A DNA stretch of 64,000 bases from a virus, in UHGV virus genome UHGV-0039337. One strand, given 5' to 3'. The notes under the pieces were generated by a model. The model worked only from the letters and a program-made list of their open reading frames with translations. It searched no databases and was not told the DNA's origin. The position numbers and the translations under genes were made by a program. How positions within the stretch are numbered: the stretch's first letter is position 1; each line of letters starts with the position of its first letter. Of the stretch, positions 7,425 to 47,500 are shown piece after piece.

Positions 7425-10400
7425 TTGCATACAACTAAATACGACATAATTAATTCTATTGATGCTGACTTAGGAATGCTAGGTTCTGACGGCACACATT
7501 TATGGAATAGTAATTCTTCAACAATACATATAGGTAATATGGTAAGTTATACTAGCTGTACTTTAATTGCTTTGTTTAAAGGGCTTGATTCCGACAGATT
7601 ATTAGGAGGTCATGCTGCACTTACTGTAAGCATAGATGGAGGTTACGGATCTTTTATTCATAGTTTTATTATAGATCAATCAGATATAAATAATGGACAG
7701 AAATATGTGCAATGTGGTGTTTCTCCAACAAGTTCAGTATATGGTAAAGAATCATCATATAACTTATCAGTAGGAATTACGGTAGTAGATAAAAACGATA
7801 TAGTTGTTTGTGATTCTACAAGATCACTTAATTTTTCTGTTTTTTTTACTGTTCCAACTTATCCTGATCCAGAGCCTGAACCAAAACCACCAGCTAGAGA
7901 GAAACCTAAATATGATGTTAAATTTGGTACTTTATACATAAATAGCAAATCAATGCAACATAATAATTTTTCTAATGAATGTACTAGAGATGAAGGTACC
8001 ATGACTTTTAAAGATACAGTTAAGGGCAAAGAATGGGAATGGGTTAAAGTAGTAACAGATAAAAAAATCATATATGTATCTACAGTTTTTGCAAGAAGAA
8101 ATGTATCTATTGATGAAATAGCACAGGCTAATGACACTATTGTAACGATAGACAAAAATAAATATAAACTTAAAACATTAATAGAATATAATCAATTATG
8201 TTATATAATTAATGATATGATTGCAAATGAAAAAATAGACTTAGAGTATGATGCTGATACTTCAAAATATGATATACCACTTAAAAATATAGAAACGAAT
8301 AATAATTCATCAATTAATGAATATACCGTATGCTCTGTTAATAACCATTACCCATATATACATTATAATCATACTATAAAAGGAAAAGATAAAAATTATG
8401 ACACAGTCATTTTACCTATATTAGAGCCAATAAAAGATGAAGAAGAACCACCTAAAGGTATTGATCTTGGCGTACAAAATGCAGCATTTGGCGTACGTTA
8501 TTTAGCAAAAGATCCTGATAAAGAACAAACATTAACAGTAGTTGAAAAACTAAATGGAAATATAATACAAACAATAAATAATTTCGATAGAAGTCAGCCT
8601 GGTATGGTTAAAATAACAAACGAATTACTTAGACCATTACTGATTGGTTCTATAAATTATATAGAGATAGATGTTTCTGATGGTTTTGTTACAGTTAAAC
8701 AGATATTAACATTTACAAAAGGAAATACTCCACCAGTTGTTACTTGCTATTGCAGTGATGAATTAGGAGAATTAGAAGAAAGACCTGTTATAGAATATTC
8801 CGTTAATGATGTTGATGGAGATGCGGTAACAGTAGTAGAAGAAATAAATGATATACAAACAAGATCATTTACAGCTACATTAAATGAAAAATATACAGCA
8901 GAAATACCTAAAGAGTTTTGGGAAAAATGTGAATATAATAAAAACACATTAAAAATAACAGCTATAGACGCTCGTGAGGCAAAAGATGTTAAAGAAATAA
9001 ACTTTACAAAAGCTAAATTACGTACGGCTTATACTGTTTTTTATGCAGTAGATGGAGATTTAAGACGTGAAAAACTTTTTATATCTATTGATGGCAAAGA
9101 AGAAATGCGTAAATATACTTTTACTGATACTACTTATGACACTGGTATAAATTTTGATTTAAAAGATATATCTGAAGGAGTAGAAATAAAAGCATGGATG
9201 GTAGCTCATAATAATTATGCTACTGAAAAATATAAGAGTAGTAATATATTAACTTTTAAGAAAAGCCTATATGGTAAACCTAATCCTAAAGTTGTACTTA
9301 CTCAAAACCATAGTGAGTATGGCTATTTAAAATTAACATATGATCATGATGATTTAGAGTTTAAAGACAATAAATGGATATCAAAGGATCCTGACAGAGA
9401 ACCTAATGAATTTATAGGTAATGTAGAAATACATTGTTATATTGATGGAAAATATGAAAAACAATATCCTATTGAAAATAATATCATACACGGTGGAGAA
9501 TCTATAACTTATAAAATAAATTTCAATGAAATAAGTCCAGGTTCTCGTAGCCATAAAATACAATATTTAGTTATTATAACTGATATAGAATCAAATAAGA
9601 AAAATATCGATATTGAACCCGGTATGTTTAATGTTGATAATCCTGTGTTAGGTTTGCAAGCAATAGAAGGTTCTCACTATTATAATGATGAACCTCTTGA
9701 TCCTAATGTTAGTTATAGTAATAATAAGTATTCTAATAACGTGTTAGAATATGAATTTTCTCATATAGACTTCATCTGGGATGGAGGTAAAGATCCTGAT
9801 GGAGATAAATGTATATATAATGTGTATATAAAAACACCTGAATCACTTAACGAAACATTAAAAACTGTATCTATATCTAGCAGAACTGGACCACATGCCA
9901 TACAATATAATCGTAAATATAGAATAACAGAAATATACAATGAAAATAATGAAGTTATAGGTTCTAATGTAGAACGTTATGATGATAATAACACTTATAA
10001 ACATATACAAACTAATAAATATGTAGGTATACATATTGATTATTTAAAAGATAGTTTAGATAAGTTTTGGCCTGAAAATGAAAATTACACTATTTACGTA
10101 GAGGCAAGAGATGTTAGAACATGGGATAACAGCTATTATGGATTTGGTGGCGAAGCAGGTAAAGGTATTGAATATCATAGAAGAAAACATGCTTATCCTA
10201 ATGATGTACAGTTGACAATAATACCTAATTTGGTCGATGGATTAGGTGACGGAGAAAAAGGTAGAATTATTGTTTTATATGATCATTCAGAAATAACTGA
10301 TAAATCAGGTATAGTAGATATCTATGCTTATCAAGATAATCAATTAATATGTAAGGTTTATAGCGGAGAATTCTATCCAAAGAAAGAACAAACGATAACT

Positions 10401-11780
10401 ATAGATTTCTCATTGTATGAGCATAAATTAAAAGATATACAAACTTCTGTGCTAAAGAGAAGTAAAAATATTACTTATTATGCAGTAGCTACTGATGTTC
10501 TTGGTTTCACTTCGCTTGATAAATTTGAAGGTATTACTTTAGAATATGTGCCTTATTTAATTCCTAACGAAGATGGTACTTATAATTTATATGATGTTAA
10601 TGTAAATGGAACTATATATGATTTTAATAAAGATAATCATTACATGGGTCCTGTACAAAAAGGATGTCACTATTTTAATGAAGAGCCTCCTGCAACAACT
10701 CCTGTAGAAGTTGATCCTAATATTATAGGATATGAAAGTGCAGCTATTAAGTGGCCTCATGTTATTGATCCTGATGGAGATGAGGTTAAATATGAAATAT
10801 ATGTAGCGAATTCAATAAGCGCATATAACTCAGAAGAAAAAGAATTCTTTAACGATAATCAAGTAGATGATAATGATTATATAAACGGTGAGGAAAATAC
10901 TCATACTCTTGTAAGCACAAAACTTAATTATAATAAAGTCATTGATATACCAGCAAGTGTTGCAGCTGAATACTCACAAAAATTTGAAGTATCTCTTAAA
11001 GAATATATGGATGATAGTAGTGTTAATATATGGATAGTTAGTAAAGACCCTTATGTTAATAGTTACTATAGAGCTGGTGAAATAATAAATATTCCAAAGG
11101 GACATGAAGCTAAAGCAATTAATATAGCTTATCCTCGTAATGGTTCTATTGTTTATGCTAAACGACCTAGAATACTTATATATTTAGGTGAAGATAATCT
11201 TCAACAAACTACCTACGTTCAATGGAAAGAACATATATATAATAACAGAGATCATACAGAATTATTTAGTAGTCCTCCTAATATTAAAAACGTTACGGTA
11301 TTTAAACCACCTGAAGTATATACTGGTGTAAGTGGAGGTAAAGTAACTTTCTCTGTATGGACTCATAATAAGTGTACATACGGTCCTAAGACATATATAA
11401 CTTATACTTATAAAAACTTTTTTGATTCTTTTAGTGACGAGAAATTAATACCTATTAAATCTAGTCATGTTAATGCATTTAGGGAAGCTATAAATACTAC
11501 TCGTGATGCTTATGGATTAGATATATCTAAATTCTCTCGTAAGATAGAAAAGAATATGATATTAGAAAACTTTGACTTTAATGAAACTAAGCAAGCAATA
11601 ATAGATGTTAATGATAAAATAAATGATGCTGATAGTAGTGAAGGGTTAGATTATAATAATCCATTAATAGTAGATCTTAAAGATTTAGACTTAGTAGAAT
11701 ATAAAGGTTCAATCGCTGCAGGTTCGTATGAAGAATTCTTAGAATGGGCACGTTTGTTATATGTATTAGAAAATTTATAG
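7425..11780 (+). CDS. Large structural protein (1451 aa) of the same modular family: PDPEPEPKPP linker, VKFG...WEWVKVVTD module, LNG modules, and DPDGD loops.
   Basis: TTG start with a GGAGGTGA RBS at 7413-7420. Motifs VVEKLNGNIIQTI, GSHYYNDEPLDP, CHYFNEEPP, DPDGDKCIY and DPDGDEVKY. Confidence 0.6.
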   Translation: MHTTKYDIINSIDADLGMLGSDGTHLWNSNSSTIHIGNMVSYTSCTLIALFKGLDSDRLLGGHAALTVSIDGGYGSFIHSFIIDQSDINNGQKYVQCGVSPTSSVYGKESSYNLSVGITVVDKNDIVVCDSTRSLNFSVFFTVPTYPDPEPEPKPPAREKPKYDVKFGTLYINSKSMQHNNFSNECTRDEGTMTFKDTVKGKEWEWVKVVTDKKIIYVSTVFARRNVSIDEIAQANDTIVTIDKNKYKLKTLIEYNQLCYIINDMIANEKIDLEYDADTSKYDIPLKNIETNNNSSINEYTVCSVNNHYPYIHYNHTIKGKDKNYDTVILPILEPIKDEEEPPKGIDLGVQNAAFGVRYLAKDPDKEQTLTVVEKLNGNIIQTINNFDRSQPGMVKITNELLRPLLIGSINYIEIDVSDGFVTVKQILTFTKGNTPPVVTCYCSDELGELEERPVIEYSVNDVDGDAVTVVEEINDIQTRSFTATLNEKYTAEIPKEFWEKCEYNKNTLKITAIDAREAKDVKEINFTKAKLRTAYTVFYAVDGDLRREKLFISIDGKEEMRKYTFTDTTYDTGINFDLKDISEGVEIKAWMVAHNNYATEKYKSSNILTFKKSLYGKPNPKVVLTQNHSEYGYLKLTYDHDDLEFKDNKWISKDPDREPNEFIGNVEIHCYIDGKYEKQYPIENNIIHGGESITYKINFNEISPGSRSHKIQYLVIITDIESNKKNIDIEPGMFNVDNPVLGLQAIEGSHYYNDEPLDPNVSYSNNKYSNNVLEYEFSHIDFIWDGGKDPDGDKCIYNVYIKTPESLNETLKTVSISSRTGPHAIQYNRKYRITEIYNENNEVIGSNVERYDDNNTYKHIQTNKYVGIHIDYLKDSLDKFWPENENYTIYVEARDVRTWDNSYYGFGGEAGKGIEYHRRKHAYPNDVQLTIIPNLVDGLGDGEKGRIIVLYDHSEITDKSGIVDIYAYQDNQLICKVYSGEFYPKKEQTITIDFSLYEHKLKDIQTSVLKRSKNITYYAVATDVLGFTSLDKFEGITLEYVPYLIPNEDGTYNLYDVNVNGTIYDFNKDNHYMGPVQKGCHYFNEEPPATTPVEVDPNIIGYESAAIKWPHVIDPDGDEVKYEIYVANSISAYNSEEKEFFNDNQVDDNDYINGEENTHTLVSTKLNYNKVIDIPASVAAEYSQKFEVSLKEYMDDSSVNIWIVSKDPYVNSYYRAGEIINIPKGHEAKAINIAYPRNGSIVYAKRPRILIYLGEDNLQQTTYVQWKEHIYNNRDHTELFSSPPNIKNVTVFKPPEVYTGVSGGKVTFSVWTHNKCTYGPKTYITYTYKNFFDSFSDEKLIPIKSSHVNAFREAINTTRDAYGLDISKFSRKIEKNMILENFDFNETKQAIIDVNDKINDADSSEGLDYNNPLIVDLKDLDLVEYKGSIAAGSYEEFLEWARLLYVLENL

Positions 11781-25605: not shown

Positions 25606-26706
25606 ATGAGAGAAGATATTAAAAAAATATTAATGGGGCCAAAGAATGTATCTACTACAAAAAAGGAAAATGTCAAGGAAGTATTAAAAGAATCTGATAC
25701 ATTAACAGTAGAAATACAAGACTATTATAACAACTTAGCTAATGATATAGATAATTTCGATAAGTTAGCGTGGGAATCTAAAACAGGATATGATACACCA
25801 CACTTTCCTAGTTTTACTAAAAATTTAGAAGGTTGGACTCCTGGGTTTTATACATTTGCAGGTGCCGCTAACGCAGGAAAAACAGCATTAATGCTTAATA
25901 TACTAGAAGATTTATGTACTACAGAATCTAATAAGCTATTCGGTATATTCTTTTCATTAGATGATAGCAAAAATAAAGTTATACCTAGAGTAGTAGCAAT
26001 GAGAGAAACTATTCCTATATCTGCTGTATCTAAACCAGCAAGATATAAAGCAATGATAGATAACGGTCATGAAGACACATTATTATTTAATGAATACTTA
26101 ACCAAACGTAAAGAAGGATTAAAGTCTCTTAAGGCAGATAGTAATAAAATGATTATATTCGATTCTACAGAAATTAAAACATATACTCAACTATATGATA
26201 CTATTAAGAATATATATATGTATGTTAAAGCACAAGACGAAGAGGCCAATATTGTAATAGCTATAGATAGCTTAAAAGATGTAGTACTTGACGATGTAAA
26301 ATTAGATATCTCAGAACGTATAGCAGAAGTAGCACGTAGAATAAAAGATATATCTATAGAATTTAATTGTATAATATTATCTTCAATGCATCTAAGAAAA
26401 CTTAACGCTACACGTAGGCCAACATTAGATGATTTAAGAGAATCAAATACTCTTGAGTACGAATTAGATGTATGTTTTCTAATATATAACGATGTATCTA
26501 AGAATAAACAAAATGCTAAGATATTCAGATATGAAGATGATACAGATACAGAGAAAAAGCCTATACTTGAAATAGATTGGGCTAAAAATAAAATAAGTTC
26601 ATACAAAGGCGTGTCATTCTGTAACTTTTCTCCTGAATATAATAAGTGCATAGAAGTAAATGATGCAGCAGCTGAACAATATACAATAAAATTGTACACA
26701 TTATAA
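25606..26706 (+). CDS. DnaB/RecA-like replicative helicase (P-loop).
   Basis: Walker A GAANAGKTALMLN. Walker-B-like IVIAIDSLKD (DnaB 'VIDYLQL'-type). Adjacent to the primase. Confidence 0.65.
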   Translation: MREDIKKILMGPKNVSTTKKENVKEVLKESDTLTVEIQDYYNNLANDIDNFDKLAWESKTGYDTPHFPSFTKNLEGWTPGFYTFAGAANAGKTALMLNILEDLCTTESNKLFGIFFSLDDSKNKVIPRVVAMRETIPISAVSKPARYKAMIDNGHEDTLLFNEYLTKRKEGLKSLKADSNKMIIFDSTEIKTYTQLYDTIKNIYMYVKAQDEEANIVIAIDSLKDVVLDDVKLDISERIAEVARRIKDISIEFNCIILSSMHLRKLNATRRPTLDDLRESNTLEYELDVCFLIYNDVSKNKQNAKIFRYEDDTDTEKKPILEIDWAKNKISSYKGVSFCNFSPEYNKCIEVNDAAAEQYTIKLYTL

Positions 26707-26779
26707 TTATTATCCCCTTAATTAGTAATATTATAATGAAGAATACTAGATGAAGGGGATAAATTTTAATTATATATAA

Positions 26780-27475
26780 GTGTGCCCAATGTCTCCTTTT
26801 GATATACGTATTCTTACAATATTGAAAGGAGATTTTTGTATGCCTAAAAAAGATAAGATATTTGTTAGTGTTAAATCAGTGGTTGACGAATTAAAAGAAT
26901 CAGATTCCATTGATACTCAAAGAGACTACAGAAAAAAGATAGCTTATACTACTCAAGATATAGTAGATAAATTAGATCAACAAAAATTACGTGATATTGA
27001 ACTAGAATTTATGCGTAAAGCAACACGTGAAGAATTAGAAGACAGTATACGTAAATTAGATAATCATTCTATTTGTTCTGGTAATGTAGTATGTCCTAAA
27101 GATATTCCAGTAACTGTAGTTAAAGAAGATAGTAAATGTGAGGGGTGCACACCCAAAGAGCAAAAACAAAAGCTTACTCAATTAGTAGAAGAAGTGCACG
27201 GTCCTAATTGTCATTGCTCTAAATGTTGTCCGGATCCTAATCCAACTTTTTTACAAAAGCATAAGTTTAAGTTTTTAGCAGCCATAACCTTTGTATGTGT
27301 ATTGATACTATCTATAGGTTGGTTACCTTCAGGAGGAAGTTATGATGCTTTGCAAAAAGCATACGTAGAACTTATAGTAAGTTTACCAAAAATGGTATTA
27401 TTGTCTATAGCTGGTTTTGCTGTTTTTAAAATGGCTAAATCAAAAGATAACGAAAAAGACGAGAAGAAGAAGTAG
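26780..27475 (+). CDS. Membrane protein with a coiled-coil region and two C-terminal TM helices. The real start is probably the ATG at about 26840 (MPKKDK).
   Basis: Hydrophobic FLAAITFVCVLILSIGWL and MVLLSIAGFAVFKMA, with a basic tail KSKDNEKDEKKK. Confidence 0.45.
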   Translation: MCPMSPFDIRILTILKGDFCMPKKDKIFVSVKSVVDELKESDSIDTQRDYRKKIAYTTQDIVDKLDQQKLRDIELEFMRKATREELEDSIRKLDNHSICSGNVVCPKDIPVTVVKEDSKCEGCTPKEQKQKLTQLVEEVHGPNCHCSKCCPDPNPTFLQKHKFKFLAAITFVCVLILSIGWLPSGGSYDALQKAYVELIVSLPKMVLLSIAGFAVFKMAKSKDNEKDEKKK

Positions 27476-27478
27476 TTT

Positions 27479-28378
27479 ATGTATAAATTCATTACTATAT
27501 TATTATCATTTATGCTAACATCATGTTTGTTTACTAATTCTTTTGCAGATTCTAGTATCATATATGATATACTTAATAAACCATATGAGCAATCAACTGG
27601 TGAAGATATAATATATAACATTATTGGTAAAAAAAAGACTAATAAAGAGATAAAAGTTAAAATCTTAAATGAAAATTCTATAAGTGATGAATTAGAAAGC
27701 GAAAATAAAAAACAAGAAAAAGATACTAAAATTAAGTTAAATATACCAAATAAAAAATCAGATAAAAATGCTTATATAAAAGGTTTAGATATTTCTAAAT
27801 GGAATGGCAATATAGATTGGAACGCTGTAGAAAGAGCAGATATTAAGTTTGTTATTATTAGAGCAGGATATGGTACACATATAGATTATAAATTTGAACA
27901 GAACATAAATAATGCTATTAAACATAATATGATAATTGGAGTTTATTGGTTTGGATACGCTTATACCAATGATATGGCTGTTGAAGAAGCAAAAATATGT
28001 GATAGAACTATTAGAAAATATAAAAAGCATATTATATTACCTGTTTTTTATGACTATGAATATGATAGTGTTAATTATGCTGCTAAAATGGGAGTAAGAG
28101 TTAACAAAAGAATGGTAAGTTCTTTCACTAATTACTTTTGTTCTTTTATTAAAAATAAAGGTTATGCTACAGGTATATATACTAATATAGATTATGCTAA
28201 TAGATATTTTTCACGTAGCATATTGAACAAATATCATACTTGGATAGCACAATGGGTAGGTTCTTGCTCATATAAATATAACTATATTGTTTGGCAATGT
28301 ACGGATAGTTATTATATAAGTAACAAAAAATATGACCTTGATTATTTTTATTACAATAGATATATAGGTGATAAATAA
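27479..28378 (+). CDS. GH25 family muramidase (lysozyme) with an N-terminal signal peptide and probable lipobox (LTSC).
   Basis: GLDISKWNGNIDWNAV, FVIIRAGYG and GVYWFGYAY are GH25 signatures. The N-terminus MYKFITILLSFMLTSCLF looks like a signal peptide. Confidence 0.8.
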   Translation: MYKFITILLSFMLTSCLFTNSFADSSIIYDILNKPYEQSTGEDIIYNIIGKKKTNKEIKVKILNENSISDELESENKKQEKDTKIKLNIPNKKSDKNAYIKGLDISKWNGNIDWNAVERADIKFVIIRAGYGTHIDYKFEQNINNAIKHNMIIGVYWFGYAYTNDMAVEEAKICDRTIRKYKKHIILPVFYDYEYDSVNYAAKMGVRVNKRMVSSFTNYFCSFIKNKGYATGIYTNIDYANRYFSRSILNKYHTWIAQWVGSCSYKYNYIVWQCTDSYYISNKKYDLDYFYYNRYIGDK

Positions 28379-29079
28379 TGAAACGTAAAATACTTATAAT
28401 ACTATTATCTATATACATGGTTCTATCATGTACAAGTAGTTCAACGGCATATCCCTTAACTTATTCTGGTAAACCTTTAATAGATAAATCACAAGCTGAA
28501 CAATATTTAAAAGATCGTCATGCAAGTAAAAAAATGTTAGATTGTTTAGATTTTATTTACGATTATGCAGAGAAAATTCGTTTAGATCCTTCTGAAGTAG
28601 TTGCTATGTCAGCTATAGAAACCGGATTTGGTAAATCTCATTTATTTGTGGTTTACAATAATCCGGGAGGGATAAAATCATCTCATACTAGCAATGGTTG
28701 GGCACATTACAAAACAGCTGAAGATGGTTATAAGGGAATGATAAATCTATTAGCAACATACGACGGTTTAATAAATAAAAAATCATATTTATATGATGTA
28801 TCCGAAACTACGGAAGGATTAGCTGGTATTTACTGGACTAATTATGGTAACGATGCAGGGTATCATAAACAATTATCAAAAGTTATAGAAACTATGCGTT
28901 CTTATCCTATTAAAAAACAAAATACTATTAAACCAAGCAAACCTAAAAAGCTTATAAAAAAATCTACTGAGAAACCTATTATAACTAAAAATCATACAGG
29001 TATAGATATTATCTACGATATCTTAAATAAAGATGATAATACTAGTGGTTTTGATTATATAATGAACTTTCTAAAATAA
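28378..29079 (+). CDS. Exported (lipoprotein-like) peptidoglycan hydrolase, probably a glucosaminidase-domain protein.
   Basis: Signal peptide MKRKILIILLSIYMVLSCTSS. SAIETGFGKS...NPGGIK...GWAHYKT...GYKGMINLL resembles the mannosyl-glycoprotein endo-beta-N-acetylglucosaminidase domain. Confidence 0.6.
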   Translation: MKRKILIILLSIYMVLSCTSSSTAYPLTYSGKPLIDKSQAEQYLKDRHASKKMLDCLDFIYDYAEKIRLDPSEVVAMSAIETGFGKSHLFVVYNNPGGIKSSHTSNGWAHYKTAEDGYKGMINLLATYDGLINKKSYLYDVSETTEGLAGIYWTNYGNDAGYHKQLSKVIETMRSYPIKKQNTIKPSKPKKLIKKSTEKPIITKNHTGIDIIYDILNKDDNTSGFDYIMNFLK

Positions 29080-29094
29080 GGTGGTGAAAATATC

Positions 29095-29310
29095 ATGAAA
29101 AGATTTAATCTAAAAGAACAAGTACATAATAAATTCTTCTGGATGTCAATAGTGTCATTAATAGTTTTAGTAGCACAACAATTTGGATTAGATTTTATTC
29201 CTGCAGATTTTCAAGTATTTGTTAATTCTGCATTAACTATATTAGTTAGTATGGGAATATTAAATGATAATACAACTCCTGGTATTGGTACAGAAGATAG
29301 AGATATATAA
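29095..29310 (+). CDS. Holin (71 aa, two TM segments).
   Basis: Small protein with two hydrophobic helices (FFWMSIVSLIVLVAQQF; ALTILVSMGIL), directly upstream of the endolysin. Confidence 0.6.
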   Translation: MKRFNLKEQVHNKFFWMSIVSLIVLVAQQFGLDFIPADFQVFVNSALTILVSMGILNDNTTPGIGTEDRDI

Positions 29311-29337
29311 TACAAATAAGAAAGGATGTGATGAATC

Positions 29338-30252
29338 ATGACTAGATTAGTAGCTATTGATGCAGGACACGGTATGAAAACTGAAGGTAAAAGAACACCT
29401 ATATTAAAAAAAGATTTAGTTATTAATGGTGAAGTCGTTAAGAGAAAAGGTGAAATCATACATGAACATGAATGGAATAGAGCAGTAGCTAAATATATAG
29501 CAGCAGGTTTAGCAAGAAATGGAATAAATTATATGTATACTGCAGACATGATAGGAAATAGAGATATTGCATTATCAACTAGAGCAAGAAAAGCTAATAT
29601 TAAAAGAGCTGATATATTAGTATCTTGTCATTATAATGCAATAGGTAGCTGTATTAATTTTCAAAATAGAATAAAAGGTCTGTTAGTATTAAGAACTAGA
29701 AACTGTTCACAAGAATCTATTAAATTAGGTAATTTGATTCATAAACATTTAAGAGCTGATTGCGATTATGAATATAGCTATGGTCTTATGAGAGATGTAG
29801 ATATGTGTGGATTTACATTAGCAATATTAAGACAAACTAATATGCCTTCAGTATTAGTAGAGTATGGCTTTATGGACTACGAAAAAGAAGCTGTAAAAAT
29901 GTTAGATCCTGTTTGGCAAAAACAATGTGCGGAAGCCACAGTAAAAGGAATATGCGAATATTTCGGAACGGAATACAAAGAAGATACTGCTAAGAAAGAT
30001 GAACATAAAAAAGACAATGTAGAACAAGATACTAGTTTTAAACCTTATATAGTTAAAATAGAAGAAGACATCTTAAATGTAAGAAAAGGCCCAGGCGCTG
30101 AATATAATAAAGTAACAACAGTTAAAAAAGGTGATTCTTATACAGTAATAGATGAAGCAAAAAGTAAAGACGGTGATATTTGGGGTCTTTTAAAAGCGTT
30201 TAAGAAAAAACGTGACGGTTGGATAAACTTAAAATATACTAAAAAGAAATAA
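29338..30252 (+). CDS. Endolysin: N-acetylmuramoyl-L-alanine amidase (Amidase_3) with a C-terminal SH3b cell-wall-binding domain.
   Basis: LVAIDAGHGMKTEGKRTP, VSCHYNA and VLVEYGFMD are Amidase_3 motifs. The C-terminal YIVKIEEDILNVRKGPGAEYNKVTTVKKGDSYTV...DIWG is SH3b-like. Confidence 0.85.
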   Translation: MTRLVAIDAGHGMKTEGKRTPILKKDLVINGEVVKRKGEIIHEHEWNRAVAKYIAAGLARNGINYMYTADMIGNRDIALSTRARKANIKRADILVSCHYNAIGSCINFQNRIKGLLVLRTRNCSQESIKLGNLIHKHLRADCDYEYSYGLMRDVDMCGFTLAILRQTNMPSVLVEYGFMDYEKEAVKMLDPVWQKQCAEATVKGICEYFGTEYKEDTAKKDEHKKDNVEQDTSFKPYIVKIEEDILNVRKGPGAEYNKVTTVKKGDSYTVIDEAKSKDGDIWGLLKAFKKKRDGWINLKYTKKK

Positions 30253-30253
30253 G

Positions 30254-30280
30254 TCCGGTGTAACTATACCGGATTTTTTG
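30254..30280 (+). terminator. Rho-independent terminator after the lysis cassette.
   Basis: TCCGGT-gtaactat-ACCGGA followed by TTTTTT. Confidence 0.75.
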
Positions 30281-30321
30281 TGTATATTAGGTACGAAAAT
30301 AAAAATGGAGGATGATATTTT

Positions 30322-30681
30322 ATGGCATTGTTTCCTACAGATAATATAAAAAAAGATGGTATACAACTAGGAGGTCCTGATACTCTATGTTATAAATGTG
30401 AACTAGAACGTAGAGCAATGGATCGTGATAGTGATATACCATATGGTAAATTACAATATAAAGAAGTATTTAAAATAAATCAAGGCGGATTAGATACTTG
30501 TTTATGTATGAGACATTTTAAAGAAATGTGTGCTACTTCTCATTATATGTTAATAGATACTAATGAATGTATGGCAGTACCTCTATCAGCAATAGAAGAA
30601 TCTGCACCTGAAATAGAAGAAACACCCGAAGCAACAGAAGAAAAACCTAAGAAAAAAGATAAAAAGAAGGAGGAGAAATAA
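30322..30681 (+). CDS. Hypothetical Cys-containing protein with an acidic/lysine-rich tail (119 aa).
   Basis: ORF with a GGAGGATGATATTTT RBS. Cys pattern CYKCE...CLCMRHFKEMC. Confidence 0.45.
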   Translation: MALFPTDNIKKDGIQLGGPDTLCYKCELERRAMDRDSDIPYGKLQYKEVFKINQGGLDTCLCMRHFKEMCATSHYMLIDTNECMAVPLSAIEESAPEIEETPEATEEKPKKKDKKKEEK

Positions 30682-30817
30682 TGAAGAGTATATTAATAAA
30701 AAAGATAAAAGATGAATTTGGTATAGGTACTATAAGTGGTAAAAAATTAGAACTATATAATTTTTATGATTTAATAGGATTTGTAACACGTATGAGAAAT
30801 GGAGAAGACATAAAGTA

Positions 30818-31021
30818 ATGGCAATAAAAGAATTGAAAGCTATGATAAATAGCAGAAAAGACAAAATAGAAGCTTTAAAAAAAGTTATGTGTACAGTTGA
30901 TAGACAACAAACTATTGATCAAATAATAATAGAAATGGAAATGATATCTCGTGAGATATGGACTATAGAAGAAGTTATAATGAAAATAAAATATTTACAA
31001 GAAACAAATATAAATGATTAA
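30818..31021 (+). CDS. Small hypothetical protein (67 aa).
   Basis: ORF only. Confidence 0.4.
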   Translation: MAIKELKAMINSRKDKIEALKKVMCTVDRQQTIDQIIIEMEMISREIWTIEEVIMKIKYLQETNIND

Positions 31022-40100: not shown

Positions 40101-40509
40101 ATTAATTAATCAAGCTTATAATGCACGTAAAGATAAAGACGAAAGACTTGATGAATCTACATGGTCAAAATCTTGTGCTCAAGCATTAGAAATAGAGGTA
40201 TTAAATACATCTATAACTTATCCATTAATATTTAATTCTGCTATGGATAAAGATATTATAACTTTAGAAAACTGTAGAATAATAAACGTTACTGAGAAAA
40301 AAGATAAAAATGGTAAACTTATGGCTTTTGTAAAAGTAAAAGTTAATGATATAGAACCAGTAGATGTTGTAGTATTTAGTAGTTTATATTTAAATAATTA
40401 TGATTTATTTGATGTTAGATATGGCGATGTTATAAATATAACAGGAGAAAAAGACGGAAAGAAATTAAAATTTAAGAAAGGAAGAAGAGAAAAGAAAGAA
40501 GATAATTAA
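37198..40509 (+). CDS. dnaE: DNA polymerase III alpha subunit (DnaE-type, PHP domain), full length (1103 aa).
   Basis: N-terminal PHP motif HCHVHTIYSMLDG...ITDHGTL. FGPGRGSVGGCLVAFLLGI...RFLTVSRTANPDIDSD. Catalytic-region MGVHAGGVGI and a C-terminal OB-like region. Confidence 0.85.
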   Translation: MINISFIHCHVHTIYSMLDGYCKIDDLIEKAKEYNMSSICITDHGTLAGIYEFNDKCKKAGLKPILGIEVYQTHDISKIILPVEERKKIAWDKYLEINNITDEKSLGKLTNKKKAELSSEYIYDTKGYHLILIAKNQTGWNNLVKLSSKANDIAMFNGKGHIDYNLLKQYSEGLICTTACISSMFNHALSNNNMDKAVKHIKILLDIFHDDLYIELQPLEWNKQVEINKKAIKIAKQYNIKTIATSDVHYTNYEDDYEHDILLCIGTGKTYNDPNRMKYDHEYWFRNENEMIDGFNRSNYTSEEMQAIKTAINNTTLLADTVEDNIQVGSDHELLPEVDVPEGYTTKSWLKRQCWTNLYKYLTDNNLMDKRYIYESRLKEELDVIITKGFAGYMLIVQDIINIGQQAGCSFGPGRGSVGGCLVAFLLGISKGIDPIEYGLLFFRFLTVSRTANPDIDSDCSQVDRQKLLRIINNKYHNTNVTQVGTLTTLGVKNGVKDVMRVLNYSFAESNAVSKKLDEIYAEPDLSFKKLDSFESEDPELYKKYKELESEYPNVFKLARKFNGCPRNMGVHAGGVGITPTPINDIYPTRNIDGKKVTVWEKDTIEKAGIVKIDMLGLKTISVIELCLKFIKKNHDIDISLNELYNNKEIRNDSNVFNMLSEGKTDGVFQFESNLFKNACKNVKPTDINDLIAITAFNRPGPLSAGFDKKYANRKNGLEPVNYPLGCDDILGDTYGCLLYQEQCMLISKKVAGFDDNQADTYLRKSLAKKKRALIDLCRQWFIYGKPEHDEYGSPIEGGINRGYDEQELKDFFDELEGYASYVFNKSHAASYSLLTVISAWLKYYYSEEFFAALLTYSVDEKADLYNDILSKQYDIHITVPDIKNLSENYNPTQGKIAYGISKIKGVGATAISTILNAGPYESVEDFITKVNKYDKARGSKKTVNKTAIIALIKAGAFDSLGETNRFKLINQAYNARKDKDERLDESTWSKSCAQALEIEVLNTSITYPLIFNSAMDKDIITLENCRIINVTEKKDKNGKLMAFVKVKVNDIEPVDVVVFSSLYLNNYDLFDVRYGDVINITGEKDGKKLKFKKGRREKKEDN

Positions 40510-40534
40510 AAGATAATTAAAAAAAAAGAAAAAG

Positions 40535-40564
40535 AAAAAATAACCCGGAAGGGTTATTTTTTTA
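40535..40564. terminator. Bidirectional rho-independent terminator between convergent genes.
   Basis: A-run, then TAACCC-ggaa-GGGTTA, then TTTTTTT. Confidence 0.75.
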
Positions 40565-40581
40565 TGGTTTTAAAAAAAGAA

Positions 40582-40887
40582 TTATAAAGTATATATTAAC
40601 TCAATAATAGATGCTTTAGTTTCATCATCATATTTAGATCTTTTTATCACTTCAACTAAATCTTCTACTGGACTTATTTGCCATAAGTTATCATCAGACA
40701 TTACACTATATGTATTATCTTCGAATAATGCTTGTAATGTATATATACCTAATTCCTTATTTGATTCTGTGCGTACTGGCTTTATATCTATTATCTTACA
40801 TAATCTACTTTTATTAAAATTTGCCTTATCTATAGAATTCTCTAATTGTCCTATATGCAAATAAACTTTATCATTAATATTTAGCAT
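40582..40887 (-). CDS. Hypothetical protein (101 aa).
   Basis: ORF with a GGTGGT SD-like sequence upstream. Confidence 0.45.
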   Translation of the reverse strand: MLNINDKVYLHIGQLENSIDKANFNKSRLCKIIDIKPVRTESNKELGIYTLQALFEDNTYSVMSDDNLWQISPVEDLVEVIKRSKYDDETKASIIELIYTL

Positions 40888-40946
40888 GGTTTTTTACCAC
40901 CTTTTTTAGTGCCTTTCTTTCCGTCTTTTTTCTTTCCGCAAGCCAT
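40881..40946 (-). CDS. Possible 21-aa Lys/Gly-rich upstream ORF (MACGKKKDGKKGTKKGGKKPC) whose stop overlaps the start of the next gene (ccATGcTAA).
   Basis: Read from the minus strand. GGTGGTGATATAA precedes the ATG. Could be spurious. Confidence 0.25.
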   Translation of the reverse strand: MACGKKKDGKKGTKKGGKKPC

Positions 40947-40951
40947 TTATA

Positions 40952-41485
40952 TCACCACCAATTTAGATATCTTTTCTTAATGGTCTACAAGGAATAGGCT
41001 ATGCCGACTATTCCCTATAGACAAACTGTACAGTTATTTATTGAGGTATCCTCGCTAACTCGAGGATACTATTCTATGGCATCTGCCGTTTCTTTTTACA
41101 GTCGGTAATGTGCCATCACAGTTTGAAAATAACTTAAAAGCTACCAAGTTTCTGGACTCAAACCATTACCTACTTTTCTTTGTATAGTGAGAAAAAGCTT
41201 AAAAACTCACATATATATCACTTTTAAAAAATATGTATTTCAAAAAAGTTGCCCGTGATATCATAATTCTAATGAGTTGAGATACATTTTGCTCTCTTAA
41301 GTATAGTTTAAAAATATCTACCACAATTCAATACGAATGAAAGGAGGGAGCCACCGATTGGCTCCCTAATAAATATGGAGGGAGATATTATAAATCAACT
41401 GCAATTAAACTTAATTGCTTCCTAGGTACAGTTACTGTTGTAACTAATTTACTAGGCTCATAAGGTCGTTGTAACCTCATTGATA
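40952..41485 (-). other. GC-enriched, ORF-free, highly structured region. Candidate long structured 5' leader or ncRNA transcribed leftward.
   Basis: Multiple perfect hairpins (GTATCCTCG-ctaact-CGAGGATAC; GGAATAG...CTATTCC; GGGAGCC-accgatt-GGCTCCC; AGTTAC-tgtt-GTAACT) plus long-range complementarity (GGTAATG...CATTACC; GACTGTA...TACAGT). A minus-strand sigmaA-like promoter candidate, TTGAAA-17-TGATATATA, lies at about 41215-41255. Confidence 0.35.
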
Positions 41486-41524
41486 ATAAAATTAGAAAGA
41501 GAAAATATAAGAGCTTTTTGCTCT
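41486..41524 (-). terminator. Rho-independent terminator for the leftward operon, downstream of the giant hydrolase gene.
   Basis: On the minus strand: AGAGC-aaaaa-GCTCT followed by UAUAUUUUCUCUUUCU. Confidence 0.6.
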
Positions 41525-41573
41525 CTACTAACTATTACTTAATAATATCTGTCTAATAGATTGTTTTGTAGAT

Positions 41574-44500
41574 TTATTTATATTTAGTCCAAAAACTTTG
41601 ACTAGTTATATTAACATCGTCTTTACAGAATTTAGTTACTTTATAAGTTGTTCCTCCATTTTTAACATAGTCTCTCCACAAAGTTTCACTATGAGCCATA
41701 TGCTTATAACAATATGTAACTGAAGCTGATACTCCTTTGCCAGAACCCCAAGATACTACGTATACGTCCATACGTCTATTACCATAATATACACTAGCTG
41801 GACAACAAATATCAAAATCAAATCCTGCATTACCAGTATCAGTTACAGTAAATATACAACTAGGATTTGCTGTTTGTCTACCTTTAAAGTATGGAATATA
41901 TACTTTAGTTCCATATGGAAGGTTATGAGAAGCTACCGTATTACATCTATTACTATGTAATCGATTACCTAAAGCATCGTTATATCCGCCTTCTCCTTCT
42001 TTGTATTGAGTACACTTAGATCCTTTAAGAGCCATTATGTATTTTACTCCATCTATTTCGCCTGCAGTTTCATCTATACCTGAACCGCCATTTTTAGAAG
42101 ATTTATCTGCGTTTATTAATGATTGTGGTCTTAGGAAATAACTATGTCCTGCATGTTTTCCTGTTACATAATAGTCTGCTTTTTCATATTTAATTCCATC
42201 ACGAGGACTTGAACTATGAGCTATCATTCCGTCTCCCATATAGATAATAGCATGTGTAGCTTTACATTCACTACCATTTGATAGATTATTTTTATCTATT
42301 AAACCTGGGCCATATGTCATTAATACATCTCCTGGTAATGCTTTAGCCATACCTTCTTTATCAGCGAACCATATCTTACCGCCTTTTTTAACTACTTCTT
42401 GTGCTAAAGTATTTCCCCCTGGATTTCCTTGTCCTGTGCTTCCGCTATAGAAATCAGAAAGGCCTGCTGCTTTATAACAACATGATACAAATGATGTACA
42501 GTCATAACCTATTTTACCATCAGAACATTTTTGTGGTTTATCATGGTCTACAGTTCTTGGGCTATTAGAATATTTAGCTTTTCCATCTTTGTATTCTTGT
42601 ACTATAGTTTTAGCCATTTCCGTAATTTTCTTTCTTATTGTTGCTCCGTTACCGTTTACTGAATCATCTATATCAGAGTTACCGTTATTATTACCATTGC
42701 CATTACCAGCACTATTAGCAGTTAATCCTATATTGCCTTTAATTCCATTATCGTATTCATAACCAGTTCTATTAAGATTAAAGTTTTCAAAGTAGAAATC
42801 TAATGAACTGTATTTATTTATTTGGACACTATCATCTTTTTCTCTTGTGTCTATCCATTCACCAGAAGCTATAATATCATATGTCTTTTTATCGATGCCC
42901 ATTTGTGTAGACTTTTCAGCTGAAGCTACGTTATCTTCTCCTGGGTCACCTTTTTGATTTTTATACTTAGCTGCTATTTTTTCTGTAGGATAGGCTTTAA
43001 TATCTGGACGTTGTAAATCAACAGATTCTTCTGTCCAATCCATCATAAATAAATAATCGCTAGGAAGTAGTTTATCTAATTCTTTAGCTCGTTCTTCTTT
43101 ATCAGTATATTTTTTCTTTATTTCTTTTTCTTTTAATTTTTTGTCAGCTGTTTGCCATTCATCTATCAAACTCTTTGGTTTTTTCTTTTCTTTTTTATTA
43201 GTATTAATATAATTATATCTTGAACTTCTTTTTTCTACATCATTTAAATTTTTGAAATCATCTAATGACATATAAGACATTTGCATATCATCAAGTATAG
43301 CTGAACCGTTAAATCCTGTTTCATCAAGTATATCATATATTGCACCTACGATAGGTTCATATCTAGTACATGTTAAACATTGATCCATGGTAACAGTTGC
43401 ACCGTCATGTACTCTATCGTCTCTTAAACATCTTATACATTTATATTTTCCCATTACACTTTGTCCACCATAATATACACAGTTTATATTAACACGTGAA
43501 GCCATACGTCCTAGATATCTAGTTACTGTTGATAATATGTTTTCTATACGTACTAATCTTTGTTCAGTCATCTTAGATTGATTAATAGCCATATCATTAA
43601 GCATTGCAAAATTCTTAGCCATAGGATGTGCTATCGGACATCCAGGATGATTACAACTATATACTCTATTTTCTATTTCATCTATTAAAACTTTAGGATA
43701 ATGATTCTCTAAGTCAGTTATCTTATCGTCATATGGATAAGGGTCCATATAGTTTACTGGTTTACCACTAGATTTTTTAGTTTTCTTATCTAGTAATTTA
43801 TAGTCATATGAGTATGATTTATCAAGTGCATCTTCAAGAGATATAGAAGCATCTTCTATTGTTGTTAATGGTATACTATTTTTGCTTAAAGAATCATAAG
43901 TACTAGTAGTATATTTAGGAGGTATAACTAAGTCTGGATATATAGGATCAACCTTACAGTCCATATTCTTATATAGTACACTTAATTCATCTACTGGTTT
44001 AACACAGTGATCTACAGAACCAGGACCTGTTTCTACTACTTTATAACGTATCATATTATCAGTAAAAGTATAAATCTTTTCAGTTAATACTTCTAAACGA
44101 GAATCTGAAGTTAATCCTACAGTTTTAACTTCTACCAAATCTTTATCATATGGTTCAAATGAGTTAGTATATATGTCTATATTAGCTGCTGTAGAATATG
44201 TCATTATTTCTTCATATTCTTTTTGTGTTATAATAGTTTTTATATCTGGTTGTGTAGCGTTAGCTTCAGTAGGTTTTGCTACTTTATATATCATTACACC
44301 ACCATTATCTATAGATGTAGTACCTAATCCAGATAATGTTATTCCTGATGTACTGCTACTATCTCCTATTGTATTATCTATGTTATTCTTATATATTTTT
44401 TCTATTGTTATATCATCTATATATAAATCAAACTTATTTTTGCTTCCTATGAATAGTTTGTAATTACTATCTTCTAATCCAGTAAATATACATCCTATAC

Positions 44501-47500
44501 GTGTCCATATAGTATTTGATATTCCTGATATATCTACTTCTTTTTCGTATTTAACTTTATTTGATTTATCTAATAGTTTTATTGATATATTTGTCTGTTT
44601 TAGTTTGTCTGGATCTAGTGGGCCACTATTTTCATCTTTTTGTGTGACTTGTTTTATATAAAATAATACTCTTAAATAACATTTGCTATCTTTTGCGTCA
44701 AAGTTTTGTGATATACCTGATATCTTATTGCTCGCATTTTTTATACGTGCAAATCCAGTTTTTCTATAAGGCCAATGTCCTTTAGTTCCCCATTCTGGGT
44801 TTGTTATACGTGAGAATTCTATAGAACCCATTTTTGACCACATTGATATATCGTCTTCTTCGAAATCAGCATTTTTTAATGATACTAAGTCAAGATTTCC
44901 TGACGAATTATTATTTTCTTCTTCGCCGTTATCCGGTTTTATTACTTCATCTCCAGGATCTTTTCCATTAGATACTTTAAAATCAGAGTTATCAAATGTA
45001 ACAGCATATGCTTTAACGTATCCAGATGTATCGTTTGTTTTTATTTTATATAAGCCTAGTTTTACATCTGTTCCTATAATAACTACTTTAGTTTGCTCAC
45101 TAAGGTCTTTATTTTGTTTTGCTAATTTAGTGTCTTTATAATAATCTGTATTTTCAAATTTAATCCAACATGTTTGTCCAACATAACTTTGAGATACTTC
45201 TCCATGATTTTTACCTATTACTACCACGTCTTCTTTTAATACATAACCAGTTTTCTTATTAAATTTACATTTATAATATGTGTTCTTTTCTCCGGTTATT
45301 TCTAATTCATCACCAACTGCTAATTTTGCTACTTTGCCTGCTTTTTCTTTTGCATCCTTTTTCATTTCTGTTCCTGATGTATTACCTACATAACAATACT
45401 GCTTATCGTTTTTAGTTTTCGGAGCTCTCATAGCAAATGTAGATGCATGATTTTCTTCTTTTGGTTCATCATGATGGTCACTATCTCCAACCATAAGTAT
45501 TTCAGTTACCAATGTAATATTAGTTGTAGATTCTATTATGCTTTTTATATTATTATAATATGTTATATAATTATTTAATGTTATTCCATCAGAGTTAACG
45601 ATAGAATCTTTTAAATATCCCTCTGAATCCATTAAGTCTTTAGATATATCTATAAAATAAAATCCATTTTTTATACAGTATGATTTTAAATTATTATTGT
45701 ATTTATCAAGAGCTTCATTAAAAGCATCTGCACTTTTATAATCTTGCTCTGAATATCTTTTTCCACAATGAGGTAATTTAGCTACATATACAGGAACGTT
45801 ATTATATAGCTCTTTTATTTTATTTAAAAATCTTACTGTATCATTAGATTCTAAGTTTTCTTTTAATCTGTTATATCCTAAATGTATATATACAAATGAG
45901 ACGTCTTTATTCATTCCTTCTAGTCTGTCTATATTCTTAGTAGGATTGTAATAATAAGAAGAATCTTTAGATATTGCAGCTTCACATATACTATATGTTT
46001 CACCTGTACTGCTTACAAAGTAACTTCCTTCTAATTCATTACTATCTCCTACTATTAGATCTCTCATTTCATATTCCCAGTTATCTCCTATAAACAATCC
46101 AGGATATTGAGTTGGATATATTTCTTCGGTATCGTTATCATCATCTATAGTAGCAATAGCATTAACAGCTCTTTTCCTTGCGGCAAAAGTTTTGACTGCT
46201 GCAGATTTTGCATCACTGTTAGCACTTATGTGACTATCAGTATTATTTTTCTTACCATTTGGAGATACATAATTTAATGGATTTACTGGTGTACCTTTTG
46301 TACCTGAAAAATCTTTATGTACTTCAAAATGTAAGTGAGGTCCGGTACCTATACCAGAGTTACCTACTTCTGCTATCTTATCGCCTTGTTTAACTGATTG
46401 CCCTACTGTTACTATATATTTATTAAGATGTTGATATAATGTTCCTATTCCGTTTCCGTGATCTATTACTACGTAATTACCACGTCCACCATTATATCCT
46501 GTTTTTGCTACAACTACTTTACCAGAATCAGCTGCTATAACTTTTGTACCTTTAGATGCTGGTATATCTAAGCCTCTATGAAATGTAGAAGCTCCAGGAG
46601 TTGGCGCTTTTCTTGGTCCAAAATTTGAAGATATTCTAGTTGATCCAGGTAATGGCCATATAAAATTACCTGAGCCTTTCTCATTTCCGTCACTGTTATT
46701 GTCGTTATTATTGTTGCTATTGTCATTATTACCATTGCCATTGTTTCCAGGTACTATTACTCCATTAGGAAGTGGAGCTGTTTCTATAAAGTTATTAGTA
46801 TTTTGGTTCGTTAATAGATTATTAGGTATATAAGTCGATGTAACTTTACCATACTTTTTATTTAACCAACTTACTTGTTTATCTACTTCTTTACAAAATG
46901 CTATCCATTTATCCTTGTCTAAATACAAGAATGGTGACGGCGCTCTATTAAGATCAAATTCACGCCATAATTGTTTACTAGTAAAGCCTTCATCATATAA
47001 TGCTTTAGCGCATTGTTCTATTAATTTTTTCTCTGTTTTAGGATAATCAACATTACCTGTTTTTTCTACTAAATCATATTCATCATAGAAGAATTCTCCT
47101 ATACTTAATGTGTATTTAGGATGTTGATTATTAAATAGATTGGCGTCTATATATGTATGCGTATTGTTATCAACACTCGCAAAACATATTTTCCCTTTAT
47201 CTACTTTATCCCATGTTATAACTTTTTTATCTGTAGTATTAGATACTGTTTTATTTGTATTTTTTGTGTTTACAAATGCAGCTCTAGTCAAAGCAAACAT
47301 AGTTGTTTCGACTTGTGGGAAAGGATTCTTTTTATATCCTCCTCCAGGTTCTACATAATCTAATGGATCTACATACTTACCATCTATCAGCATTCCAAAA
47401 TGTAAATGCATTAAAGGATTTGACACTGTAACACCTGTTGTACCTATACATTGACCTTTTGTTACAGTGTCTCCTTCTTTTACCTTTATCTCATCAAGTG

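Follow-up and report, generated by a model that had tools for sequence, protein, structure and literature searches.

A conserved membrane-protein gene and two tagged, probably exported wall hydrolases beside the holin–amidase pair of a large gut phage

We analysed a lysis gene cluster in a 64,000-nucleotide stretch (the window) of UHGV virus genome UHGV-0039337. The cluster encodes a GH25 muramidase, a glucosaminidase, a holin and an amidase endolysin, and is preceded by a gene whose 211-aa membrane-protein product we name UP. Sequence comparison across phage lineages identifies UP, GH25 and glucosaminidase as the evolutionarily stable module, and the holin–endolysin pair as a replaceable neighbour. 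Our overall reading, to which we assign a probability of roughly 60%, is that an accessory exported-lysin module (Unit 1), with UP as its membrane component, has been joined to a canonical holin and amidase (Unit 2). That the module supplies exported enzymes and serves in lysis is the safer part of this reading, and we consider it very probable. The new elements are UP and a short helical tag shared by the two upstream enzymes; the system is otherwise a variant of exported-endolysin lysis. A first-pass annotation had described a four-gene unit and missed the shared tag. Its picture of a multi-component cassette with three bond specificities, two Sec-exported enzymes and a leaderless amidase agrees with our predictions, but the unit that is conserved is a different one.

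The five genes lie on the plus strand between 26840 and 30276, with intergenic gaps of 3, -1, 15 and 27 nt. They encode UP (26840..27475), GH25 (299 aa, 27479-28378; PF01183 Glyco_hydro_25, E 8e-25), the glucosaminidase (233 aa, 28378-29079; PF01832 Glucosaminidase, E 5e-12), a 71-aa holin with two transmembrane (TM) segments (29095-29310; PF04531 Phage_holin_1 / phrog_297) and a leaderless 304-aa endolysin in which Pfam finds Amidase_3 and a C-terminal SH3_3 domain (29338-30252). A hairpin resembling an intrinsic terminator, with an 11-bp stem and a T-rich tail (30251-30276, plus strand), marks the operon end and is the sole plus-strand terminator-like site within 26500-30800. Because the gaps are tight and no terminator lies between the genes, we treat all five as one operon. 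The four open reading frames (ORFs) from GH25 onwards, their domains and the terminator were placed correctly in the first-pass annotation, and the N-termini that it quoted are exact. Its GTG start at 26780 for the upstream gene does not hold: an ATG at 26840 is most likely, with an AAAGGAG ribosome-binding site 8 nt upstream and with gene callers and homologues in agreement.

The catalytic residues of both upstream enzymes are intact in alignments, which was one of the checks that the first-pass annotation had proposed. Pfam and an alignment with 2WAG, LytC and Cellosyl delimit the GH25 catalytic domain (aa ~99-293, 27773..28378). Its D104 occupies the position of the catalytic Asp in solved GH25 enzymes and D192-x-E194 that of their D-x-E, and both are invariant in a 28-sequence family alignment. 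For the glucosaminidase, a single-sequence search of the PDB gave no match and a profile search only a marginal match to FlgJ, so that a fold search was needed: the top PDB neighbours from Foldseek belong without exception to GH73 (LytB, Auto, C. difficile Ecd09610, AtlA, Acp and SagB). Pfam, the FlgJ profile and the AlphaFold2 (AF2) model together define a GH73-type catalytic domain followed by a disordered Lys/Pro-rich linker at aa ~177-206 (28450..28995 for both), with pLDDT above 90 in the core and below 50 in the linker. Glu81, within IETG, aligns to the Glu of the FlgJ motif ALESGWG and is invariant, as is the Y-x-x-D-x-x-Y motif (YWTNYGNDAGYH). The sequences support a cassette that covers three bond specificities, namely those of a muramidase, a glucosaminidase and an amidase. 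Compared with deposited phage proteins, GH25 and the amidase reach ~30-37% identity, over the catalytic domains only.

Each of the two upstream enzymes also carries a tag of ~30 aa that forms a pair of short amphipathic helices. In GH25 it stands at the N-terminus of the mature protein (aa 24-54, DSSIIYDILNK...EDIIYNIIGKKK, 27548..27640; detected with hhalign, hidden Markov model (HMM) E 7e-13). In the glucosaminidase it stands at the C-terminus (aa 207-233, GIDIIYDILNK...FDYIMNFLK, 28996..29079 including the stop codon; alignment, AF2 and HMM), where AF2 places the helices at 208-216 and 224-232. A low-complexity basic linker, disordered in AF2, joins tag to catalytic domain; in GH25 it is Lys/Glu-rich and ~45 aa long. 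Aligned to one another with hhalign, the tags give a probability of 97.6%, an E-value of 4e-12 and a score of 45.4, against 7.6±1.8 (maximum 15.6) for 200 column-shuffled controls, and on this comparison they are homologous. The tag HMM was run on the window and 133 fetched loci (1.33 Mb), which together yield 12,541 stop-to-stop ORFs. Across these 134 loci every match lay in an exported hydrolase whose gene comes right after UP: 31 loci have both UP and tag, none has the tag without UP, and 102 GH25-containing loci (22 viral, 80 bacterial) have neither. The lone UP-positive locus under the tag threshold, L133, is also the most divergent; here the gene after a Cys-less UP encodes a secreted Amidase_3 and the next one a secreted GH73, and the C-terminal tail of the Amidase_3 (GMDLINSILRRNSNRNAVLDKLLSMLK) is the best tag match in the locus (E 0.003). 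From these sequences the tag appears to occur on three catalytic classes, at either terminus, and always on exported enzymes beside UP; the amidase in the window operon, which is leaderless, carries SH3_3 instead. The 32 UP-positive loci collapse to ~10 independent lineages, and the Fisher p-value of 1e-29 therefore overstates the association between tag and UP.

Conservation of gene order points to the same three genes. The triad recurs with the same order and spacing in phage lineages of 271 kb, 224 kb (L025), ~115-128 kb (L028, L036-41) and, in IMG/VR, ~200 kb (L042-45), and it is also present in the short contig L027 and in L050/51. In every lineage the gene immediately preceding the exported GH25 is matched by the UP profile, with E-values of 1e-59 to 1e-94. 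In IMG/VR, GH25 as the sole query retrieved no more than distant GH25 loci without the module, while a query with the UP alignment recovered it. The first-pass suggestion that the upstream two-TM gene belongs to the system is borne out by the gene context of its homologues, in which it is the tightest-linked component. The lysis neighbours are far less constant. The window has Phage_holin_1 and Amidase_3, and L027 has a 152-aa holin with Amidase_2; L028 has Holin_5_2 and CmpB upstream and an Amidase_2-SH3 protein 7 kb off. In L042 nothing related to lysis lies within 6 kb, and the triad stands isolated on the plus strand between minus-strand HU-like and RecD2-like genes. We regard the triad as the stable module because its order and tight spacing are kept while holin and endolysin change family, move or disappear. 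It nonetheless belongs to lysis in our reading because, in six of the eight evaluable lineages, holin and endolysin are encoded no more than 7 kb away.

Several loci vary in what surrounds the triad. At the position of the window amidase, L025 lacks both the holin and the catalytic domain of the amidase, and a 94-aa ORF (L025:9611-9895) is homologous only to the SH3_3 C-terminus of that amidase (29338-30252); this ORF represents either the remains of a deletion or an independent wall-binding protein. Two other loci (L046:7001-8080 and L048:3640-4794) encode an exported, tagged GH25 with a C-terminal 3D domain (PF06725) and have no separate glucosaminidase gene, so the second activity of the module appears interchangeable. 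A PF06541 (ABC_trans_CmpB) membrane protein is paired with Phage_holin_5_2 just upstream of UP at L028:5854-6529 and L050:5772-6459, and this recurring pair may be a further component of lysis control. In an 85%-identical lineage, an 81-aa PF21825 (Sequestin) gene lies just downstream of the amidase (L029:9919-10164 and sister loci L030-L034). At the equivalent position of the window (30322-30818) no Sequestin-type gene was called, and the difference looks like a small accessory-gene indel beside the lysis operon.

UP begins with a long helix (aa 24-80), followed by a Cys/His-rich segment, disordered in the AF2 model, that contains an invariant HGxxCHC[SE]KCCP motif at aa 120-131. Hydropathy and AF2 confirm the two C-terminal hydrophobic helices reported in the first-pass annotation; by hydropathy TM1 spans aa 142-160 and TM2 aa 185-200, with a Lys-rich tail after TM2. 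Between them lies a conserved turn and amphipathic helix, GWxPSGGxYxALQKAYVELIV (aa 160-184). After the G-W-x-P-x-G turn the protein forms a single long helix, of which the first ~17 residues (xYxALQKAYVELIV) are amphipathic and the remainder is TM2. Lys residues lie at the N-side of TM1 and in the C-tail, and by the positive-inside rule UP is likely N-in/C-in, which would leave no more than the conserved turn and the amphipathic helix on the outer side. This outward-facing segment is better conserved (0.80) than TM1 and TM2 (0.71 and 0.64). Across the family UP ranges from 125 to 304 aa; its most divergent members have no Cys motif, while the outward segment and the coiled coil persist. No match to UP was found in Pfam (even at E<=1), PHROGs, NCBIfam or PADLOC, nor among deposited phages. 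A screen of 185,579 bacterial and archaeal species genomes gave 36 pattern matches, of which none was confirmed; it yielded neither a prophage copy nor a direct assignment of the host. An exhaustive HMMER search of 1.84 billion proteins returned 26 representatives at E<=1e-3. Judged by these searches, UP is an undescribed protein family of narrow distribution. In the literature we found nothing on the UP membrane protein or the helical tag, although precedents exist for exported and additional lysins.

The alternative that survives best makes UP a second holin, a pinholin or an antiholin, and makes the tag a wall- or teichoic-acid-binding or dimerisation module that has no contact with UP. In its favour, the C-terminal part of UP, a hairpin of two TM segments with a strongly charged, Lys-rich tail, recalls class II holins, and the L042 and L025 triads have no holin nearby. 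The tag is terminal and separated by a linker, as typical wall-binding domains of endolysins are, and two amphipathic helices could pair the two enzymes. Against it, UP is 125-304 aa long and includes a long conserved region with a predicted cytoplasmic location (the N-terminal ~140 of 211 aa in the window protein). Searches of Pfam, PHROGs and NCBIfam matched it to no holin family, and a canonical holin is usually present as well. Outside the Cys motif, moreover, its most conserved part is the outward-facing loop. A general wall-binding tag would be unexpected when the phage's own amidase uses SH3_3 for that purpose and the tag is absent from all 102 other GH25 loci of related bacteria and phages. 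We consider this alternative possible but rather unlikely, and retain UP as the membrane component of an exported-lysin module.

The evidence for export lies in the N-termini. GH25 starts with a predicted signal peptide at aa 1-23 (MYKFITILLSFMLTSCLFTNSFA, followed by D; 27479..27547), and the glucosaminidase with one at aa 1-24 (MKRKILIILLSIYMVLSCTSSSTA, followed by YP; 28378..28449). In both, a basic n-region precedes a Leu/Ile/Phe-rich h-region (FITILLSFML in GH25; ILIILLSIYMVL in the glucosaminidase), and a Sec signal-peptide pattern is found in 66 of 69 distinct GH25 and 42 of 46 distinct glucosaminidase homologue N-termini (~95%). The first-pass annotation had seen lipobox-like cysteines in both enzymes. 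These are present, as LTSC16 in GH25, ahead of the conserved A-x-A, and VLSC18 in the glucosaminidase, and the N-termini do resemble signal peptides. Both also satisfy PROSITE PS51257, which requires [LIVMFWSTAG](2)-[LIVMFYSTAGCQ]-[AGS]-C at positions 15-35, an uncharged stretch before it and an N-terminal K/R. The cysteines are nevertheless sporadic among orthologues and specific to this lineage: only 5 of 66 GH25 and 2 of 46 glucosaminidase N-termini pass the same rule, and the lipobox column holds Cys in 16 of 86 and 14 of 50 aligned sequences, respectively. Ser, Gly, Pro or Phe occupies this column in most close relatives, and where the Cys is kept the residue at -1 is often Leu, which a lipobox does not allow. 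Downstream lies a conserved site of signal-peptidase-I type, S-[FY]-A↓[DS]-S-I-I-Y in GH25 and x-x-A↓Y-P-L in the glucosaminidase, with A/G/S at -1 in essentially all sequences and Tyr at +1 in 48 of 50 glucosaminidases. Because the Cys is sporadic while the A-x-A site is near-universal, we read the family as Sec-exported and cleaved by signal peptidase I; these look like ordinary exported enzymes, not conserved lipoproteins.

The competing interpretation is that both upstream enzymes are lipid-anchored through Lgt and Lsp at Cys16 and Cys18, which would give a holin-independent route of lysis or a function other than lysis. Besides the PS51257 matches, it gains something from the observation that in this phage both enzymes have A/G/S at -1 of the Cys, which neither enzyme does in the sister lineage of 83-86% identity (ILGS in GH25, the incompatible LLC in the glucosaminidase), a mildly notable coincidence. 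The conserved mature N-termini that follow the A-x-A site (D/S-S-I-I-Y and Y-P-L) are what cleavage at that site predicts, and known exported endolysins still depend on depolarisation by the holin. We regard lipid anchoring as improbable, even when it is confined to this one phage lineage. More generally, a lipobox match in a lone sequence may mislead when orthologues do not conserve the Cys. Two further assignments were rejected. Signal-anchor-release (SAR) endolysins are a poor fit, the h-regions here being strongly hydrophobic and rich in Leu/Ile/Phe rather than Gly/Ala/Ser and being followed by the conserved A-x-A cleavage site. A Gram-negative, spanin-like system (Rz1 lipoprotein) was set aside on the evidence of the holin, the SH3_3 domain and the closest homologues, all of which indicate a Gram-positive host.

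The remaining alternative, that the triad is an exported wall-remodelling module unrelated to lysis, used to loosen thick peptidoglycan or spore cortex, to enlarge the cell for jumbo virions or to attack neighbours, and placed next to lysis genes by coincidence, could draw on its location within a replication gene block away from virion genes, its uncoupling from holin and endolysin in L042 and L025 and a spore-forming genus as the source of its closest bacterial GH25 relatives, but is very unlikely given that holin and endolysin stay close in most lineages despite their differing families, often interleaved with the triad, that the window triad has tight spacing and a single terminator in common with holin and amidase, and that a secreted additional lysin of Kayvirus has been shown to assist lysis. 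The first-pass annotation had likewise raised roles in spores, S-layers or superinfection, and we found no pointer to any of them.

Under the preferred reading of an exported-lysin module joined to a canonical pair, GH25 and the glucosaminidase would be made with cleavable Sec signal peptides and exported during infection, and the two glycosidases would accumulate in the wall compartment, where they would be kept in check. By analogy with other exported endolysins, triggering of the holin would collapse the proton-motive force (PMF) and the glycosidases would become lytic, with the amidase released through the holin lesion at the same moment. UP is probably the membrane-side controller or docking partner of the tagged enzymes, as we infer; it would tether or regulate them through its outward-facing turn and helix, or might instead serve as a holin-like trigger. 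Gating by PMF, the topology of UP and any contact between UP and the tag are likewise what we infer from these data. Several observations weigh against this reading. Both window enzymes pass the lipoprotein rule, so that signal peptidase II might process them in this phage. L025 and L042 have no holin or endolysin within 6-8 kb, and the module may therefore work without a canonical pair or serve some other purpose. The AF2 model of UP is of low confidence (pLDDT 59, pTM 0.24), and its topology was assigned by the positive-inside rule alone. Finally, the co-occurrence of tag and UP could reflect inheritance of a single cassette rather than physical contact.

A more specific proposal, which we put forward tentatively, is that UP and tag form an undescribed dock-and-release lysis system of phages of Gram-positive hosts, in which the tag would dock on the UP loop, the enzyme would be held inactive and release would be timed. 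Equally tentative are its two corollaries: a portable tag might address any catalytic class to UP (GH25, GH73, Amidase_3 or GH25-3D fusions), and timing might be set by the predicted cytoplasmic coiled coil and Cys-rich domain of UP. If true, this would be a monoderm counterpart of the SAR-endolysin/pinholin or releasin type of control. How exported endolysins are silenced outside the Gram-positive membrane is a still-unresolved question (PMC6116005), and this gene set makes it testable. Should UP control the tagged enzymes, it would represent a new type of lysis regulator, and the tag a small targeting element that might help to engineer lysins directed at Clostridia-like bacteria of the gut.

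Parts of the system have clear precedents. Exported endolysins such as Lys44 of Oenococcus phage fOg44 leave the cell without a holin yet need holin-driven collapse of the PMF to act (PMC6116005), which counts against the holin-independent route envisaged in the first-pass annotation. Comparison with secretory and SAR systems, also suggested there, gave a divided answer: the window enzymes combine a Sec signal pattern with a hydrolase domain that retains its catalytic residues, as expected of the Lys44 type from sequence, and lack the features of SAR endolysins. Like Lys44, they are peptidoglycan hydrolases with a predicted cleavable Sec signal peptide, encoded beside a holin (PMC6116005); accumulation in the wall and activation on PMF collapse would be their expected behaviour by analogy. 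In contrast to the Lys44 type, the window has two exported enzymes of differing specificity and a leaderless third, and adds a dedicated conserved membrane-protein gene and a shared tag, features undescribed for such systems. Nor is a phage with both routes new: in large staphylococcal phages, Kayvirus Tgl is a secreted extra lysin beside LysK and holin, is triggered by nisin and works together with the main endolysin (PMC7150955). Tgl is similarly a Sec-secreted accessory wall hydrolase on top of a canonical pair in a large virulent phage of a Gram-positive host, but it is a single lytic-transglycosylase-like enzyme with no sequence kinship to those described here, and it has neither a partner membrane protein nor a shared tag.

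For UP the parallels are looser. The Mu gp25 'releasin' is a membrane-tethered regulator of the exported SAR endolysin gp22 (PMC9239132). By analogy, UP would share its membrane tether, its large cytoplasmic part, its location near an exported endolysin gene and a role in timing activity. It differs in that Mu infects a Gram-negative host, its SAR endolysin is not cleaved at a signal peptide, and gp25, a DUF2730 protein, carries its TM segment at the N-terminus; UP has a C-terminal TM hairpin and no Pfam match at E<=1. In the SagB-SpdC complex of S. aureus (PDB 6U0O), an integral membrane partner sets the activity and position of a GH73 enzyme, and SagB is among the Foldseek neighbours of the glucosaminidase core; like releasin, the complex is an analogue in function only. 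That pair, however, serves host housekeeping and has no role in lysis, SagB is itself membrane-anchored, and SpdC is polytopic and unrelated to UP.

The canonical pair is readily recognised. The 71-aa holin scores 35.1 bits with PF04531 (cut-off 22) and matches the phrog_297 holin with an E-value of 1e-13; the 304-aa endolysin scores 99.5 bits with PF01520 and 33.4 bits with PF08239. The N-terminus of the amidase (MTRLVAIDAGHG) leads directly into the catalytic domain and has no export signal, and the protein resembles lysins of Bacillus, Geobacillus and Paenibacillus phages at 30-35% identity. The nearest bacterial GH25 catalytic domains (44-49% identity) are all from Terrisporobacter, in loci of 26-28% GC; this genus of Gram-positive spore-formers belongs to the Peptostreptococcaceae. 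Among these relatives are leaderless prophage-type endolysins and large secreted autolysins, none of them with the tag. Terrisporobacter mayombei (among the genomes of L052, L055, L056 and L058) has at least three GH25 genes with the closest catalytic domains, of which one is leaderless with peptidoglycan-binding repeats (the prophage type) and two are secreted SH3/Fn3-rich autolysins of 720-790 aa. Taken together, these sequence similarities suggest a monoderm host within the Clostridia, possibly a member of the Peptostreptococcaceae such as Terrisporobacter.

The phage window is AT-rich, at ~28% GC. An identical GH25 protein occurs in a 271,414-bp human-gut metagenome scaffold and sister genomes recur at 270-273 kb, so the window is most likely part of a complete ~271-kb genome of an uncultivated human-gut phage; a search for near-identical DNA among deposited phages found no close relative. 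No tRNA or tmRNA genes were found across the 64-kb window of this ~271-kb genome. The genes of the window include large Ig-domain and tail-fibre-like proteins, a PriCT primase, a DnaB-type helicase, RecJ and a PolC-type polymerase. The triad sits inside the replication gene block, with primase and helicase upstream and RecJ and PolC downstream, and virion genes lie elsewhere. In the 133-nt gap upstream of UP, a sigma-70-like promoter candidate, TATACA-16-TATAAT (10/12 matches to consensus; 26680..26707, plus strand), is a possible start of the five-gene operon; in this AT-rich stretch, promoter-like sites are no more frequent than in shuffled sequence. A 9-bp inverted repeat (TATCCCCTT / AAGGGGATA, 33-nt loop) at 26711-26761 begins 5 nt past the helicase stop, upstream of UP, and could be a terminator or regulatory hairpin that divides the replication genes from the lysis operon. 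Farther away, the ORFs at 101-2863 (920 aa) and 7425-11780 (1451 aa) have in common a Hoc-like Ig-type head-decoration region (phrog_10993 / phrog_36643) and lie amid several ORFs of 400-1080 aa that match no family. Around 40500-41600 the GC and AT skews change sign and gene strand switches from plus to minus; the two blocks are convergent, and a minus-strand ORF of 2613 aa (41574-49415) lies just past this switch.

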